A stretch of DNA of 26,576 bases from the NCBI GenBank assembly GCA_027053075.1, contig JALUEE010000100.1, forward strand, positions 1 through 26,576, written 5' to 3'. The DNA is from a candidate division WOR-3 bacterium. GTDB lineage: Bacteria; Hydrothermota; Hydrothermia; B15-G9; WFZT01. This document shows, piece after piece, positions 1,689 to 8,920 of the stretch; the stretch's first letter is position 1, and each line of letters begins with the position of its first letter. Both the position numbers and the translations under genes were made by a program. The notes beneath the pieces were generated by a model. That model was not told the DNA's origin. It did not search any database and was given only the letters and a program-made list of their open reading frames with translations.

Positions 1689-2807
1689 TCACGGATACAC
1701 GCGGGTTTGGAGTTTTTCCTCCTTAAATCTAAATGAAAATGGGGCATTCGGGTCAACTTCGATGTATCCGTTTTTTATCTCAAAGGGTGGTTCTGCGAGG
1801 TCTTCGTTGTAAAACTCTGATGCCGGTGAAAAATCACCGGGAAATTTCTCACAAACCCCGGGCATGGAGGCAACAACCATGTTCTGTATCCTTCCCCATG
1901 TTGTCTCGAGCATCCCACCAATAAATGCATGGAGGACTCTCTTCTTTATCTCCTCTGCAAGCTTGAGAGAATTATAGAGTCCCCCGACACGAGGTGGCTT
2001 TATATTCACAACCACGTCAAAAAGTTCAGCAGCCTCTCTAAAGTCAATAAGTGTCTCAATGCTTTCATCAAGGGAAACAGCAGCTCTCGTCTTTTTTGAT
2101 AGGAGACTATGCATGTAAATAGCTTTGGGTATAAAAGGTTGCTCAATCTCATCAACAAGCTCACTCACGTCGAGTATCTCTTTCCAGTGCTTTTCATCAA
2201 AGGGGTCAAAAGAGCCATTGGCATCAACAGAAATAAATTCCGGGGCAAACTTCTCTTTCACAAATTTCACAGGTTCTATAGACCAGCCTGGCTTAATCTT
2301 GAGCTTTATGGCTCTTATTCCCTTGCCAAAAGCCCACTTGACATGGGCTCCTATTTCCTCAAAGGACCCTATTCCGATGCTGCTCTGGAGTCTAAATCTT
2401 ATTTTTGACGGCTTGAGAAAATCAAAAAAGCCCTTCCCCACCTTTTGCAGAATTAGATGCCACAGAGCAAATTCAATACCAGATTTGGCAAAGTTGTTTC
2501 CTCTATAACTTTCGTGAATTTCCAGAAGCTCAGAGATGGAAATTTCTTTTCCGGTTATTTGCTCCAGAACAATTTTCGAGAAGTCAATTGTGGATTCGAG
2601 AAATTCAGCACTGTAAATGGGCTCTTGCAGCACCGGGATTTCACCAAATCCTTTAAGCCCTGCACCTGTTAGCTTGATCACGGGAACGTTTTTGGTTTTA
2701 ATGACCCCACGGCTGATTGCAAATTCTCTTTTCATCTCGAGGTCAACTACATATATTTCTGCGCGGTAAATCCTTATTTTTTCGTGTAAAATCTCTTCAA
2801 ATTTCAT
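1689..2807 (-). CDS. Enolase superfamily (MLE subgroup) enzyme, N-acyl/N-succinylamino acid racemase / o-succinylbenzoate synthase (NSAR/OSBS)-like
   Basis: KLKIKPG (KxK), VDANG, EIEQP and LDESI metal ligands, NIKPPRVGG, GGMLET, PGDFSPAS, N-terminal EPIYSAE. AAGGAG SD; overlaps the upstream gene by 11 nt. Confidence 0.85.
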   Translation of the reverse strand: MKFEEILHEKIRIYRAEIYVVDLEMKREFAISRGVIKTKNVPVIKLTGAGLKGFGEIPVLQEPIYSAEFLESTIDFSKIVLEQITGKEISISELLEIHESYRGNNFAKSGIEFALWHLILQKVGKGFFDFLKPSKIRFRLQSSIGIGSFEEIGAHVKWAFGKGIRAIKLKIKPGWSIEPVKFVKEKFAPEFISVDANGSFDPFDEKHWKEILDVSELVDEIEQPFIPKAIYMHSLLSKKTRAAVSLDESIETLIDFREAAELFDVVVNIKPPRVGGLYNSLKLAEEIKKRVLHAFIGGMLETTWGRIQNMVVASMPGVCEKFPGDFSPASEFYNEDLAEPPFEIKNGYIEVDPNAPFSFRFKEEKLQTRVYP

Positions 2808-3963
2808 TGAGCACTCCTTTTTCTTTTAAAAATTCCTTTAACCTCCAGTGATTTTCCGGTAAATTGCCGTTTTTGATGGCCATTTTGCGTGCAGCATTTA
2901 TATTTTTCCAGATGCCGAGCTCTTCCGCTTTCCTGTTAATGTTTTGGGCTTCTTCGAATATTCGCGAAAAAACTACATAAATCTTTTCGATATATTCTAT
3001 TCCCGGTGGGGTTCCTATGTGCCTGATTTCAATGAAACTCTTGTTGTCAAAAAACCTCCATCTCGCATCCCAGAAGACCCACCAGTCCATTTGAGAAAGA
3101 TACTCATGACCTTTTACGAAGACTTTCCTGTATTTTAGTTGATCTCTGTCGAGGTCCTCAACCTTTTCAATGATAAATCCGTGTGTGCCCTCTATAACAT
3201 CCCTGGCCTTTACATTGTTGTCAAAAAAGAGGAGTTGTCCGTATTTGTAGGTTCCTTTTGTTGTGAGAATCTTCGCGCGTGTGTTTTTGAGCATTTCAAT
3301 GTAATGCTTAGAGCTTTGGACTTTGCCGGGGATTCCGAGCATGTCGCTATCAAAGGGATTATTTCGAATCATTTTCTCCCAGGCAAGAAGCCTGTATTCG
3401 TGGGTTGCAAGAGGGCTGTTGCCTCCGAGGGTTGAAATCAGGACAGGTGAAGTTGCAAAAATAGCGTTAATTTTTTCTGCAAGCTCGTCCGGGGAAACAT
3501 CAATTGCGGGCTGGAAACTGGCGCTCAAGTAGAGCTCGTGGTGTTTCCAGTTCCAGAATCTACGAATCACCGCATAGAGGCCGCGTCTCGTGTAGCGCTT
3601 GAGGTATTCTTCAAAATTGATGAGCCTGGGATACTGTGATACCCATAAAATGGAAAAATTTCTCGATTTGATGGCAACTTCAACGAGTGTAACAAGCTCT
3701 TTAATCTTTGCAACTGCTTCTCTTATGGTATCAGCGGGTTCAATGGCAAGCTCAAAAAGAGAGGCTGAGGAGTCAAGTCCAATGACACCAAGTCCCTCAA
3801 TTTCATAGCCGAGGAATGCACCTGTCAGGATGTCGGTATTGGGTTTGAATTGAGGAAGGACTTTCTCGAAGTCTGGGATGAGCTCGAGCCAGTCTTTCCA
3901 GGTTATGGGGATTCCATTTTCATTTACAACGATTAGCTCAAGCTCTGCTCCAAACTTTGTCAT
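2797..3963 (-). CDS. Glutamate--cysteine ligase family 2 (GCS2)-like gamma-glutamyl ligase, amine acceptor unknown
   Basis: N-terminal FGAELE (GxExE), LFELA, SASFQPAID, DARWR...FIEIRH motifs of the GCS2/YbdK/EgtA fold. ATGA overlap with the upstream gene. Confidence 0.7.
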   Translation of the reverse strand: MTKFGAELELIVVNENGIPITWKDWLELIPDFEKVLPQFKPNTDILTGAFLGYEIEGLGVIGLDSSASLFELAIEPADTIREAVAKIKELVTLVEVAIKSRNFSILWVSQYPRLINFEEYLKRYTRRGLYAVIRRFWNWKHHELYLSASFQPAIDVSPDELAEKINAIFATSPVLISTLGGNSPLATHEYRLLAWEKMIRNNPFDSDMLGIPGKVQSSKHYIEMLKNTRAKILTTKGTYKYGQLLFFDNNVKARDVIEGTHGFIIEKVEDLDRDQLKYRKVFVKGHEYLSQMDWWVFWDARWRFFDNKSFIEIRHIGTPPGIEYIEKIYVVFSRIFEEAQNINRKAEELGIWKNINAARKMAIKNGNLPENHWRLKEFLKEKGVLNEI

Positions 3964-4634
3964 TTCAGGAAAAATCTGTCGAGGAGAGTGTGGAGGTATT
4001 TGTTTGATTCACTGATCTTATGGGGATCAATCAGGTTGTCAGTCTGGATAAACTTATCGGGGACGAGTTCGCTGGCACCATTTTTGATGAGCTCGGCAAG
4101 AGATTCTTCTGTGACCTCGAGGTGGAATTGAAGTGCCATGACATTGTCGCTGAAAAATCCCTGATTTTCTGTTGCCTCACTCCATCCTATTCTTTTGTAG
4201 CCTGCTGGAATTTCGAATGTGTCCCCATGCCAGTGGAAGGGAGTGATTTTCTCTGGAAATCCGCTAAAGAACGGGGATTCCAGTGCCACGTGGGTGAGAT
4301 GGACGTCAAACCAGCCAATTTCTTTGAATTTGTTTGGGAAAACCCGGGAATTGAGCGAATCTGCGATGAGCTGTGCACCAAGACAAATACCTAATACCTT
4401 TTTACCGGCCTCGATGGAGTTTCTGATGAAGGATTTTTCTTCCTGGAACCATGGGATGTCGTCATAGACACTCATTGGGCCACCCATGATTACGAGGAAA
4501 TCGAAGTCAACCACGTTGGGCAGCGGGTCGTTCTGGTAAAATTTTGTAAATGTAATCTGATGCCCCTCTGCCCAGTTTATGATATATCCAGGCCCTTCAA
4601 AAGGAACATGCATGAGTACGTGCATCCTCATCAT
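3960..4634 (-). CDS. Stand-alone class I glutamine amidotransferase-like protein (possible gamma-glutamyl hydrolase)
   Basis: IMGGPMSV, LGICLGAQL (nucleophile Cys), HWHGDTF, QFHLE (His-x-Glu). No synthetase domain is fused. Confidence 0.9.
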   Translation of the reverse strand: MMRMHVLMHVPFEGPGYIINWAEGHQITFTKFYQNDPLPNVVDFDFLVIMGGPMSVYDDIPWFQEEKSFIRNSIEAGKKVLGICLGAQLIADSLNSRVFPNKFKEIGWFDVHLTHVALESPFFSGFPEKITPFHWHGDTFEIPAGYKRIGWSEATENQGFFSDNVMALQFHLEVTEESLAELIKNGASELVPDKFIQTDNLIDPHKISESNKYLHTLLDRFFLK

Positions 4635-4744: not shown

Positions 4745-4799
4745 TTTAAACAAATTGCAAATGAGATTATAATTTTCACGGATTAATCTTTTAAGGAGG
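4745..4799 (+). promoter_or_regulatory. Putative promoter and RBS of the STAND-TPR gene
   Basis: TTTAAA (4745-4750), 17 nt, TATAAT (4768-4773). SD AAGGAGG (4793-4799) lies ahead of the GTG at 4805. Confidence 0.5.
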
Positions 4800-4804
4800 G
4801 AGAA

Positions 4805-7800
4805 GTGAATTTTGAAGATGTGATTAACATAATAGCCTCTATCATTGATTCACTGATACCCATACCTGCAGGCACAATTGGGTTTATGTTTGTAAATAAA
4901 TGGAGAAGGAATAGAATCCTCGCAAGGGTTATTCAAGCTACGTTAAAAGACTTCCAGAAATCAATGAAGATGCGGGGAACTGTTTATGAGACTGCTGCAT
5001 CCTGCCTGATTAAAGCTTTCGAGGATGAAAAAGACACGGTTAAAAACCTCGTTAAGGAAGCTCTTGAGGAAGGTGAGATTAAATCAACAGACAGGTTCAG
5101 GGAAACACAGTGTTTTCAGGGAATACCAGATGATATTCTTGCTGAAGTAAGTAATGAAGTTGTAAAACGAATACTCGGGAGTTTATGGGAATACAAGGAA
5201 TTCAGGGATGATGCAGCTTCTTTTTTAATTAAAACCCAGGCTGAAAGACTCGAACAAATTAAGAAGAGATTAGACGAATTCAAAAATGAATTGCCAGAAA
5301 CTTTGAGAGAGTCGATTAAAGCTATTATTACCGAATATAAGAGAGAAGAAGCTCTTGAGCAATTGAGGACAACAACTGCAAAGTTTCCTGAAGGACAGGA
5401 ATTTTCTTTCCATGAGCTTAAGGCGCAGTATCGGCTAATCCCATTTACAGGAAAAGAATCGAAGGCATTAAAAGATGAGATTGTTCAATGGGCAAAGAAA
5501 CTTAATGGTGTGGGGTTACGCTGGCTCTATGGTGCAGGTGGCGCTGGTAAGACACGACTCATGGTGGAAGTGGGCGAGGAACTTAAAAATAGCGGATGGA
5601 ACGCCTATTTCCTCCCCTTAGAAGAATGGGAAAAAGAGCACATGAAGTATTGGGTTGATAATGACAGGCCTACAATGCTCATTGTTGATTATGCTGAGAT
5701 GCGTAAAACGGAGCAGATAACAGACCTGCTAAATGCGGCTATTGGAGCCAAATCTGATGACACCAATCCACTTGCACTTGTATTGCTCACTCGTGAAGCA
5801 CCGAGAATTAAAGGTTCACAATCCAACCTGTTATCTGATGCCCTCCAAACATGGTCAGTTCAGGGGACTAACTCTTTGAGGCGTGAAATTTTTAACAATG
5901 CACTGCGAGAGGCAAAGGCTATCCCGCCACTCGATGAAATTGATAGAGTCGAACTTTTCAAAAAAGCGGTTGAACAGTTTAGAGAGCGTTTGAGAATATC
6001 TTCTAAAGCTATATCTTATGATGCTAATGAATTGCCTTCTCGTCCACTTGCAATTATTTTGCTTGCATTCCTTTTTGCACAGGGGCGTCGAGATGTTGAA
6101 AGCTCTAAGGAAGAGGAAATTTACAGTGCTGTGTGGGATTGGGAAAAGGGGAAGTGGGAGAAGACCTTGAAGGCTCTCGGACTATGGAAAAATCAGCCTG
6201 ATTTGATGAAAGAGGCGATAAATCGCATAGAGCAGTTGCAGGTGGCAGCTACATTGGGTCTTGGGTTTTCTAATAAAAAAGATAAAGATATCGTGAATTT
6301 CTGGCAAAAAGTGGATAATCTAACTGGTAAATTTCCTCTACTGGATGGAAAAGACCTTATCAGATTGGCTGGTCAGATACCACAGCTATTTGCAGGTCAT
6401 GGAAAGGGTATGTCTCTTGTGCCAGCTATTACGCCTGACCCATTAGCTGATTTTGTTATGGCAAATCTTGTTATTCCAATTTCATCACTCAATATACAGG
6501 GTTACGAAGATGATTTATGGGACTTACAAACAGTTATGGAATCACATCCACTGGCAATTATTGCATGGGCAGCACTACCTGAGCCAATTAAGCTTGTGTC
6601 CATAGAGTTAACAGAAGAATTTTGGGTCTTCAACATGTTGAAGATTATAACTCGTTTGAGGGATGCGTATCCTGATGCAGGCCAGGTTCTGGCCAAAATC
6701 CTTGCACTATGGTTAGAGCACACCGTCCGTGAACTTTATACCAAAAATCCGGATTTCACAAGGAAATGGCTCAAAATCTGGGAACATGTGCTTCCATCTC
6801 ATCCAGAACGCACAGTAGCACTGAGAGAATTGGTAGCTTCCTATTACAAATCACAATATTTTATAGCAACAGACGAAGCTGAAAGGGCTTCTTGGGCTAA
6901 CAATCTAAGCGTCTCACTTTCGGCACTCGGCAGAAGAAAAGAGGCATTGGAAGTTGCAAGAGAAGCTATGGAAATTCGCCGTAGATTAGCGAGTGAGAAT
7001 CCACAGGCATTTGAACCTGACCTCGCTATGAGCCTCAACAATCTTGCCACTTCCCTTTCTTATACAGGGCGAAGGGAGGAGGCACTGAAGATTGCAAGAG
7101 AAGCTGTGAAAATTAGTCGCAGACTTGCGAGGAAGAATCCACAGGCTTTCGAACCTGACCTCGCAGTGAGTCTCGCCAACTTTGCCGCACTCCTTTCTGA
7201 TGCGGGACAAAGGGAGGAGGCACTGGAGGTTGCAAGGGAAGCAGTAGCTCTGTACCGCAAATTGGCTAAACAGAATCCACAGGCATTTGAACCTGACCTC
7301 GCTATGAGCCTCAACAATCTTGCCACTTCCCTTTCTTATACAGGGCGAAGGGAGGAGGCACTGAAGATTGCAAAAGAAGCAGTGGATTTATACCGCAAAC
7401 TTGCAAAAGTGAGTCCACAGGCATTTGAACCTGACCTCGCTATGAGCCTCAACAATCTTGCCGCACTCCTTTCTGATGCGGGACAAAGGGAGGAGGCACT
7501 GAAGGTAGCAAAAGAAGCTGTAGAGATTCGCCGCAGACTTGCGAGTGAGAATCCACAGGCATTTGAACCTGACCTCGCTATGAGCCTCAACAACCTTGCC
7601 ATTTTCCTTTCTGAAGCAGGGCGAAGGGAGGAGGCACTGAAGATTGCAAGAGAAGCTGTGGAAATTAGTCGCAGACTTGCGAGGAAGAATCCACAGGCTT
7701 TCGAACCTGACCTCGCTATGAGCCTCACCAATCTTGCCGCACTCCTTTCTGATGCGGGACAAAGGGAGGAGGCACTGAAGGTAGCAAAAGAAGCTGTAGA

Positions 7801-8920
7801 GATTCGCCGCGGACTTGCGAGTGAGAATCCACAGGCATTTGAACCTGACCTCGCTATGAGCCTCACCAACCTTGCCACTTTCCTTTCTGATACAGGGCAA
7901 AGGGAGGAGGCTCTGAAGGTTGCAATAGAAGCTATGAATTTATACCGCAAACTTGCGAAGGAGAATCCACAGGCATTTGAACCTTACCTCGCTATGAGCC
8001 TCACCAACCTTGCCAAATTCCTTTCTGATACAGGGCAAAGGGAGGAGGCTCTGAAGGTAGCAAGAGAAGCTGTGGATTTATACCGCAAACTTGCGAAGGA
8101 GAATCCACAGGCATTTGAACCTTACCTCGCTTTGAGCCTCAACAACCTTGCTGCATTTCTTTCTGAAACAGGGCGAAGGGAGGAGGCACTGAAGGTTGCA
8201 ATAGAAGCTATGAATTTATACCGCAAACTTGCGAAGGAGAATCCACAGGCATTTGAACCTTACCTCGCAGGTAGCCTCACCAACCTTGCCAACAGCCTTT
8301 CTGATACAGGGCGAAGGGAGGAGGCTCTGAAGGTTGCAATAGAAGCTATGAATTTATACCGCAAACTTGCGAAGGAGAATCCACAGGCATTTGAACCTTA
8401 CCTCGCTATGAGCCTCACCAACCTTGCCAAATTCCTTTCTGATACAGGGCAAAGGGGGGAGGCTCTGAAGATTGCAAGAGAAGCTGTGGAAATTCGCCGC
8501 AAACTTGCAAAAGAGAATCCACAGGCATTTGAACCTGACCTCGCTGCGAGCCTCGACACCCTTGCCAACCGTCTTTCTGAAACAGGGCGAAGGGAGGAGG
8601 CACTGAAGGTAGCAAGAGATGCAGTGGATTTATACCGCAAACTTGCGAGGGAGAATCCACAGGCATTTGAACCTGACCTCGCAAGAAGTCTCGGTGCACT
8701 GGGCTATGCCCTATCAAATTTGAATAAACCAGAGGAGGCAATGGAATCTTTTGCCGAAGGGATAAAAATTCTTATACCTTATGCACAAAAGTTGACACAG
8801 GCATACTTCCCTATACTAAATGAACTTCTTGATGGCTATTTGCAGGCAGAAAATAAAACTGGCAAAGAGCCAAATTCAAAACTTATTAAGCAAGTTGAAG
8901 CTTTACTTAACCCCGAATAG
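4805..8920 (+). CDS. NLR-like protein: unknown N-terminal helical domain + STAND-type P-loop NTPase + TPR repeat array
   Basis: 1371 aa. Walker A GAGGAGKT (5531-5554), Walker B MLIVDYAE (5675-5698), sensor-like VLLTR, GxP-like SRPLAI, WHD-like PDPLAD, and 46-aa TPR-like repeats at the C-terminus. Strong SD. Confidence 0.85.
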   Translation: MNFEDVINIIASIIDSLIPIPAGTIGFMFVNKWRRNRILARVIQATLKDFQKSMKMRGTVYETAASCLIKAFEDEKDTVKNLVKEALEEGEIKSTDRFRETQCFQGIPDDILAEVSNEVVKRILGSLWEYKEFRDDAASFLIKTQAERLEQIKKRLDEFKNELPETLRESIKAIITEYKREEALEQLRTTTAKFPEGQEFSFHELKAQYRLIPFTGKESKALKDEIVQWAKKLNGVGLRWLYGAGGAGKTRLMVEVGEELKNSGWNAYFLPLEEWEKEHMKYWVDNDRPTMLIVDYAEMRKTEQITDLLNAAIGAKSDDTNPLALVLLTREAPRIKGSQSNLLSDALQTWSVQGTNSLRREIFNNALREAKAIPPLDEIDRVELFKKAVEQFRERLRISSKAISYDANELPSRPLAIILLAFLFAQGRRDVESSKEEEIYSAVWDWEKGKWEKTLKALGLWKNQPDLMKEAINRIEQLQVAATLGLGFSNKKDKDIVNFWQKVDNLTGKFPLLDGKDLIRLAGQIPQLFAGHGKGMSLVPAITPDPLADFVMANLVIPISSLNIQGYEDDLWDLQTVMESHPLAIIAWAALPEPIKLVSIELTEEFWVFNMLKIITRLRDAYPDAGQVLAKILALWLEHTVRELYTKNPDFTRKWLKIWEHVLPSHPERTVALRELVASYYKSQYFIATDEAERASWANNLSVSLSALGRRKEALEVAREAMEIRRRLASENPQAFEPDLAMSLNNLATSLSYTGRREEALKIAREAVKISRRLARKNPQAFEPDLAVSLANFAALLSDAGQREEALEVAREAVALYRKLAKQNPQAFEPDLAMSLNNLATSLSYTGRREEALKIAKEAVDLYRKLAKVSPQAFEPDLAMSLNNLAALLSDAGQREEALKVAKEAVEIRRRLASENPQAFEPDLAMSLNNLAIFLSEAGRREEALKIAREAVEISRRLARKNPQAFEPDLAMSLTNLAALLSDAGQREEALKVAKEAVEIRRGLASENPQAFEPDLAMSLTNLATFLSDTGQREEALKVAIEAMNLYRKLAKENPQAFEPYLAMSLTNLAKFLSDTGQREEALKVAREAVDLYRKLAKENPQAFEPYLALSLNNLAAFLSETGRREEALKVAIEAMNLYRKLAKENPQAFEPYLAGSLTNLANSLSDTGRREEALKVAIEAMNLYRKLAKENPQAFEPYLAMSLTNLAKFLSDTGQRGEALKIAREAVEIRRKLAKENPQAFEPDLAASLDTLANRLSETGRREEALKVARDAVDLYRKLARENPQAFEPDLARSLGALGYALSNLNKPEEAMESFAEGIKILIPYAQKLTQAYFPILNELLDGYLQAENKTGKEPNSKLIKQVEALLNPE
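6875..8806 (+). repeat. Intragenic tandem array of 138-bp units: 12 near-identical units (7013-8668) plus a degenerate first and last unit
   Basis: GAACCT(G/T)ACCTCGC recurs at 7013, 7151, 7289 ... 8669 with an exact 138-bp period. Confidence 0.95.

Follow-up and report, generated by a model that had tools for sequence, protein, structure and literature searches.

In fungal NLRs whose repeats show high internal conservation (HIC), the sites under selection lie on the concave helices of the tetratricopeptide repeats (TPRs), e.g., in Podospora Pa_2_10340 (PMC4986451). HIC TPRs have also been noted in bacterial NLRs, which "might similarly" diversify (bioRxiv 10.1101/2020.01.06.895854), and a survey across domains reported HIC for 22% of the repeat proteins linked to an ATPase (PMC13449251). 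For STAND proteins (signal transduction ATPases with numerous domains), an activation model has been described in which the ligand clamps the TPRs and the NTPase oligomerises (PMC13581612). Here we describe a gene of comparable layout on a 26,576-nucleotide stretch of DNA (the window) from a candidate division WOR-3 bacterium (GCA_027053075.1, contig JALUEE010000100.1, positions 1 to 26,576). The gene (4805..8920, + strand), defined by its open reading frame and profile matches, encodes a protein of 1371 residues with an N-terminal helical region, a P-loop NTPase module and 14 TPR units, and the STAND or NLR-like arrangement is present in that an NTPase carrying both Walker motifs (A and B) precedes superstructure-forming repeats. 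An earlier reading of the DNA alone (the original prediction) had proposed that the repeats encode a recognition code under diversifying selection. On balance, we favor the view that the array senses the ligand at one end of an immune receptor of NLR-like (STAND) type, in which predicted groove residues are kept diverse by selection.

The array consists of twelve internal, in-frame units of 138 bp (46 residues) from 7013 to 8668 (+), flanked by an N-terminal and a C-terminal cap unit; Tandem Repeats Finder returned a period of 138 with 12.6 copies. Its identity was indicated by the TPR_10 profile (E 3e-102, 13 stretches) and by Foldseek, whose matches were TPR solenoids. The twelve-unit TPR array is real and moderately conserved. 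The description of its DNA as near-identical proved overstated, as the mean pairwise identity of the units was 84% for DNA (72–99%) and 76% for protein, with an overall synonymous divergence of 0.21. Scaffold codons, which had been called nearly invariant even at synonymous sites, were codon-invariant at only 13 of the 23 amino-acid-invariant positions, and synonymous divergence at amino-acid-invariant codons was 0.16. The best in-register 100-residue segments were 90% identical, above the threshold for HIC (Dyrka 2014: >85% over at least 100 residues), although only 7 of 66 unit pairs reached at least 85% identity.

Recutting the 12 units reproduced exactly the residue alphabets of the original prediction at positions 6 (M/V/L/G/A), 9 (N/A/T/D), 13 (T/A/I/K/N), 14 (S/L/F/R) and 17 (Y/D/E); position 3 (D/Y), which had been missed, was variable too. 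The proposed register, in which positions 6, 9, 13 and 17 correspond to TPR positions 2, 5, 9 and 13, was confirmed by Pfam TPR_1, which aligns unit residues 6–35 to profile positions 2–31 (n to n−4). Of the 43 extra amino-acid alleles, 13 fell on these four sites, where chance would place 3.7 if all 46 sites are counted (p=0.0005) or 6.1 if only non-core sites are (p=0.004), and a literature-derived set of groove positions, fixed beforehand (TPR 2, 5, 9, 12, 13, 33 and 34), was also enriched (p=0.0065). Amino-acid changes were radical at positions 6, 9, 13, 14 and 17 (mean BLOSUM −0.7), whereas those on outer helix B were conservative (+0.29), and 10 of the 12 units had distinct groove words. 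The claim that helix-A changes concentrate at the listed sites held up, but helix B (21–42) contributed 53% of the nonsynonymous differences versus 43% for helix A, and helix-B positions 33, 35, 40 and 41, left out of the original prediction, were similar in variability to 9 or 17 in the window array. At helix-B positions 34–35, a dimorphism of I-R versus L/I-Y came up repeatedly inside arrays of different phyla, and the repeats of kinesin light chain (KLC) differed from one another in the same way.

The units have swapped DNA in register, which is the exchange expected of HIC repeats. The distances among units for the helix-A and helix-B halves were uncorrelated (rho 0.13, p 0.29), the A halves of units 1 and 3 and of units 8 and 11 were identical, as were the B halves of units 7 and 10, and incompatibility grew with distance (p=0.024). 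Scaffold codons for the same residue mismatched at 0.14–0.15 within the gene versus 0.60–0.76 against four other genes. The uncorrelated half-unit histories, shared halves and codon homogenisation within the gene bear out the concerted evolution that had been proposed.

Analyses of homologues indicated which sites resist this homogenisation. A search with the NTPase region retrieved 102 proteins, including the window protein, among 7992 scored candidates; 57 arrays with at least four internal units (cap units dropped) fell into 18 clusters, and one representative of each was used. The ratio of within-protein to between-protein variability was 0.92 at position 6, 0.87 at 9, 0.91 at 13, 0.93 at 14, 0.75 at 17, 0.85 at 3 and 0.91 at 35, versus 0.46–0.70 at the outer positions 26, 29, 33, 37, 40, 41, 42 and 44. 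Group means were 0.88 for the first seven and 0.63 for the outer positions (bootstrap confidence interval of the difference 0.16–0.33), and in the nine most conserved arrays they were 0.85 versus 0.44. Sites 6, 13 and 14, with 3, 9, 17 and 35, therefore escape homogenisation across the family. The outer sites are homogenised within proteins, and helix-B variation thus behaves mostly like homogenised drift, with the exception of position 35.

By alignment to characterised TPR proteins, the variable sites would line the concave groove beside a ladder of asparagines. TPR positions 2, 5, 9, 12, 13, 33 and 34 were reported on the concave face, and the Asn at TPR position 6 was assigned a backbone-binding role (PMC1261162); the equivalent unit position 10 was Asn in 115 of 121 units. 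The groove location predicted for 6, 9, 13 and 17 was supported in this way, by register mapping to HOP and KLC and not by model coordinates. The model of the repeat region (pLDDT, the predicted local distance difference test score, 92; pTM, the predicted template modelling score, 0.72) had two 21-residue helices per unit (A, 43–17; B, 21–41). In KLC, an Asn/Ser difference in helix A4 decides JIP1 binding (PMC5642895), and this specificity site appears to align with unit position 9. The substitutions N287L and R251D disrupt KLC cargo binding (PMC5450233); by our own numbering these residues would be unit positions 10 and 16. The top sequence match of the array, to designer pentatricopeptide repeat (PPR) proteins, contained no individually significant stretch and was set aside as generic solenoid likeness. 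L291 and R312 of KLC2 (positions 14 and 35) are reported to touch cargo as well. These two contacts are not addressed in the consulted text of PMC12774541.

Selection was assessed at the codon level. Allele-count ratios were near 1–1.7 and saturating, and likelihood models were used instead. Arrays were present in 23 of 133 loci plus the window; 14 had at least four units after the N-terminal cap and 12 had at least five distinct units, with C-cap-like, duplicate and three aberrant units dropped beforehand. Reducing three closely related arrays of the 12 to one gave a set of 10. We used our own codon model with a separate tree for each half-unit, and neutral gene-conversion simulations, with multi-nucleotide mutation and biased conversion left out, as the null. 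In the 12 arrays, the ratio of nonsynonymous to synonymous rates (dN/dS) was 2.0 at site 13 (likelihood-ratio test [LRT] 15.6) and 1.6 at site 6 (LRT 9.1), whereas the null did not exceed 7.2 in any of 34 simulations. In the 10 arrays, the joint dN/dS at 6, 13, 14 and 17 was 1.6 with an LRT of 15.2, whereas the null peaked at 3.1 over 42 simulations, and excluding the window gene left a joint dN/dS of 1.3 (LRT 9.4). In nine other arrays, outer helix B had a dN/dS of 0.5. For the window gene alone, dN/dS at five sites was 3.2 (LRT 15.9), a value that 1 of 287 nulls attained when the sites are taken as fixed beforehand. Together, these data provide moderate evidence for family-level diversifying selection at 6, 13, 14 and 17; selection in the window gene by itself is only suggestive. 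The diversifying selection of the original prediction was thus sustained jointly for these sites across the family, but not for position 9 in other arrays, nor in the five arrays that had diverged most.

A number of results weigh against the reading of a receptor with selected groove residues. Positions 3, 14 and 35 joined the groove set post hoc, after the data had been inspected; position 37 (TPR 33) acts as an outer site, and the non-groove positions 20, 21 and 45 are likewise high in within/between ratio. In the 10 arrays, the single-site LRTs of 8.3 and 7.3 were equalled by the maximum over sites in 3–4 of 42 nulls. The set 6, 9, 13 and 17 of the original prediction had a pooled dN/dS of 1.0, because position 9 is mostly Asn in other arrays, and dN/dS was also 1.0 in the five most diverged arrays. 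When the synonymous rate was freed for each codon, the excess at 6 and 13 was gone, probably because of multi-step codon paths, since directly counted synonymous variants were not elevated at these two sites. With the best five sites of the window gene chosen post hoc, 31 of 287 nulls reached the observed value, and the whole-array mixture test for this gene gave a 2ΔlnL of 2.9. Furthermore, the NTPase scored below every Pfam cut-off, the N-terminal region had nothing above cut-off in Pfam, NCBIfam or PADLOC and matched no effector, the sole PADLOC match for the protein was weak and located in the repeats, with no match to Avs, and the window gene is solitary, with no defence genes flanking it.

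The alternative that fares best, although we consider it unlikely, is relaxed constraint, in which groove and outer residues alike drift freely under slow homogenisation by gene conversion, without positive selection. It would account for helix B being as variable as helix A in the window gene, for the modest pooled dN/dS (1.3–1.6, and 1.0 in the five diverged arrays) and for the loss of significance in the window gene after post hoc choice of sites. However, outer sites that are equally variable are homogenised within proteins whereas 6, 13 and 14 are not, none of the 42 neutral simulations with conversion reached the joint statistic, and dN/dS on outer helix B was 0.5 in the nine other arrays.

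Somewhat less probable again is position-specific specialisation, with every repeat fitted to a separate patch on a single unchanging host ligand and no continuing arms race. High within-protein variability and radical differences are likewise predicted by specialisation, and the recurrence of the same residue pairs at positions 13–14 across phyla is in keeping with it. The 435 internal units of 80 proteins held 110 different 13–14 pairs; 40 of the proteins had N-R and 26 had A-M, and 13–14 was the strongest non-self covarying pair of positions. Against specialisation, the number of internal units among homologues ranges from 1 to about 20, identical half-units stand at different positions of the array and the gene is accessory. 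In addition, related-strain contigs from two other studies appeared to have pairs that the window lacks (I-H, S-I and K-A), an anecdotal observation from single contigs at depths of 6–29.

We regard as very improbable an assembly artefact, in which the mosaic arose from wrong joins of short reads between similar repeats. The array is not spanned by any listed contig of the best-matching metagenome run, so that unit order rests on the assembly, and the longest exact repeat measures 143 bp. All other exact repeats in the array are at most 102 bp, the frame is intact and the groove words are mostly distinct; moreover, independent arrays show the same pattern, and mis-joining alters order or count and cannot create alleles. 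Rewriting of the variable codons by a diversity-generating retroelement was rejected as close to negligible, for although the alleles at position 9 (AAC, ACC, GCC and GAC) differ at adenines only, position 6 changes at non-adenine bases, the genome (95% complete) has no RVT_1 match and blastn found no template copy elsewhere.

In the immune receptor that we favor, the Asn ladder at position 10 would hold the backbone of an extended polypeptide, most likely a foreign protein (phage or other non-self), and the shuffling of half-repeats together with changes in repeat number would create new binding surfaces. Binding of the ligand would switch on the NTPase, which would then oligomerise and trigger the N-terminal region. 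We further speculate, by analogy to transcription activator-like effector (TALE) or PPR repeats, that the 46-residue repeat could be a programmable peptide reader in which the 13–14 pair, with 6, 3 and 35, sets the accepted ligand side chains; one residue alphabet would be reused by bacteria of several phyla and gene conversion would rewrite the target sequence. This proposal is a long shot, and the recurrent 13–14 pairs could be explained by shared ancestry or side-chain packing. If true, it would represent a recombination-driven receptor repertoire in bacteria.

A sigma-70-like promoter candidate (4745..4773, +), identified by consensus match only (10 of 12 positions), lies upstream of the gene, and its GTG start is directly preceded by a purine-rich ribosome-binding site. 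The orphan N-terminal region (4805..5404, +) has a hydrophobic start and, by homologue comparison, occupies the place of effector domains in relatives. A profile built from 59 homologous N-termini scored 5.0 bits on it versus 4.3 for the best of 200 shuffles, and a search over 1.84 billion proteins returned one other match, P0103, an unrelated HEAT-like protein with near-identical repeats of ~70 residues. Alignment located Walker A (GAGGAGKTR, 5531..5557, +), which all 19 of 19 aligned proteins share without change, as well as Walker B (LIVDYAE, 5678..5698, +), and the homologue alignment also showed a conserved LPxxPL motif downstream of the NTPase. The protein had no Pfam match to NB-ARC or NACHT at E up to 0.1; the NTPase was weakly similar to nSTAND5 (PF25199; 17.3 bits, under the cut-off of 34), which 8 of the 19 aligned homologues matched at E up to 0.01. 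No solved structure related to the NTPase was found, and a single-sequence model of the N-terminus and NTPase (pLDDT 44) was too low for use of its fold. By unit alignment and model, the N-terminal cap repeat (6875..7012, +) has a divergent helix A; the internal units that follow it are persistently variable at 3, 6, 9, 13, 14, 17 and 35 and nearly invariant for Asn at 10. The C-terminal cap repeat and terminal helices (8669..8917, +) are of a type kept across homologues.

The gene is accessory and is absent from the same site in a close relative. Only 4 of 60 relatives and none of 5 congeners had a match to it, and in the congener G004 the segment 4681..9005 is replaced by 433 bp of non-coding DNA, between flanks 93% and 91% identical that are 4325 bp apart here. 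This empty site (L153:4182-4614 = G004:C216:9187-9619) has copies of an intergenic repeat that is present many times in this genome, e.g., at 189-391 of the window. The best-matching sequencing run was a hydrothermal vent metagenome, none of the runs listed for the gene was an RNA run, and contigs from three other studies covered 27–30 of 30 bins at roughly 90% identity. Elsewhere in the window, a CoiA-like nuclease gene of low GC (34%) at 533-1555, between intergenic repeats and a housekeeping operon, was possibly acquired. An operon at 1689-4634 (−) encodes an enolase-superfamily protein, a class I glutamine amidotransferase and a protein with weak likeness to glutamate-cysteine ligase (PF04107, slightly below cut-off). 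The source genome's second NTPase-TPR gene (G000 contig C27:45697-50033; L008-L012) has a CHAT-like N-terminus (by eye) and 42-residue repeats with 88% DNA identity that vary at the equivalent positions 6, 7, 13 and 17; its array is interrupted by assembly gaps.

Hosts of named homologues included Thermoflexus, Anaerolineae, myxobacteria and actinobacteria, and no neighboring gene shared among 16 related loci was apparent by eye. Three relatives had N-terminal PNP domains, and 5 of the 19 aligned homologues had NNH1. Other relatives have TIR_2 and trypsin domains according to precomputed accessions. Two relatives (L032:5887-8995 and L050:5392-8610) adjoin Bell-like genes of 125–145 residues that had no Pfam match above cut-off; their amyloid-like C-terminal tails (by eye) resemble the low-complexity motif at the receptor N-terminus, as in amyloid-signaling pairs. 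These domains and partner genes of relatives, together with the patchy occurrence of the window gene and its absence from the orthologous site, speak for an immune setting. In L072:1590-6004 and L077:5383-8445, the N-terminal/NTPase part seems split or frameshifted from the rest, possibly through sequencing error.

Comparison with known systems indicates where this gene belongs. The closest solved TPR sequences are those of KLC (PDB 5OJ8, 3EDT and 3ZFW; E 1e-21), which share the P-D-x-A-x-x-L-N-N-L-A helix start and the Asn ladder, but KLC is a eukaryotic cargo adaptor with diverged 42-residue repeats, four residues shorter, and no NTPase. The TPR protein of the FxSxx-COOH system (NF040586) has similar repeats (185 bits, under the cut-off of 300), and no FxSxx-system neighbors were seen. 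Avs and other defense-associated STAND receptors similarly combine a STAND NTPase with a TPR sensor, although the Avs sensors characterised so far detect phage folds that are conserved, by their shape (PMC13581612). The likeness to fungal NLRs that had been proposed holds, in that a fungal HIC pattern with selected concave sites is documented, and the fungal receptors and the window gene have in common an NTPase followed by similar TPR units and variation in repeat number (PMC4986451). The window gene differs in its bacterial host, 46-residue units, an NTPase that Pfam assigns to neither NB-ARC nor NACHT, a lower mean identity, a weaker selection signal and no effector match. Bacterial and archaeal HIC NLRs likewise have ATPase-linked HIC repeats for which rapid diversification was proposed (PMC13449251; bioRxiv 10.1101/2020.01.06.895854), and the two relatives beside Bell/amyloid-like genes recall loci of the preprint, whereas the window gene is solitary with an orphan N-terminus. 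The literature search returned no codon-level selection test on bacterial HIC TPRs in the texts it covered, which excluded supplements that may bear on the point. The selection-driven diversification of bacterial NLR-like repeats proposed in print gains moderate support from this family, whose analysis singles out residues 6, 13 and 14, then 3, 9, 17 and 35, and the regular, stable 46-residue scaffold of a vent organism, with few variable positions, would be a handy system in which to probe for a modular code of peptide recognition. What is new here is the codon-level test in bacteria and the recurrent 13–14 residue pairs; as the pattern was already known from fungal and bacterial receptors, the window gene is a good new example of it and not a new principle.

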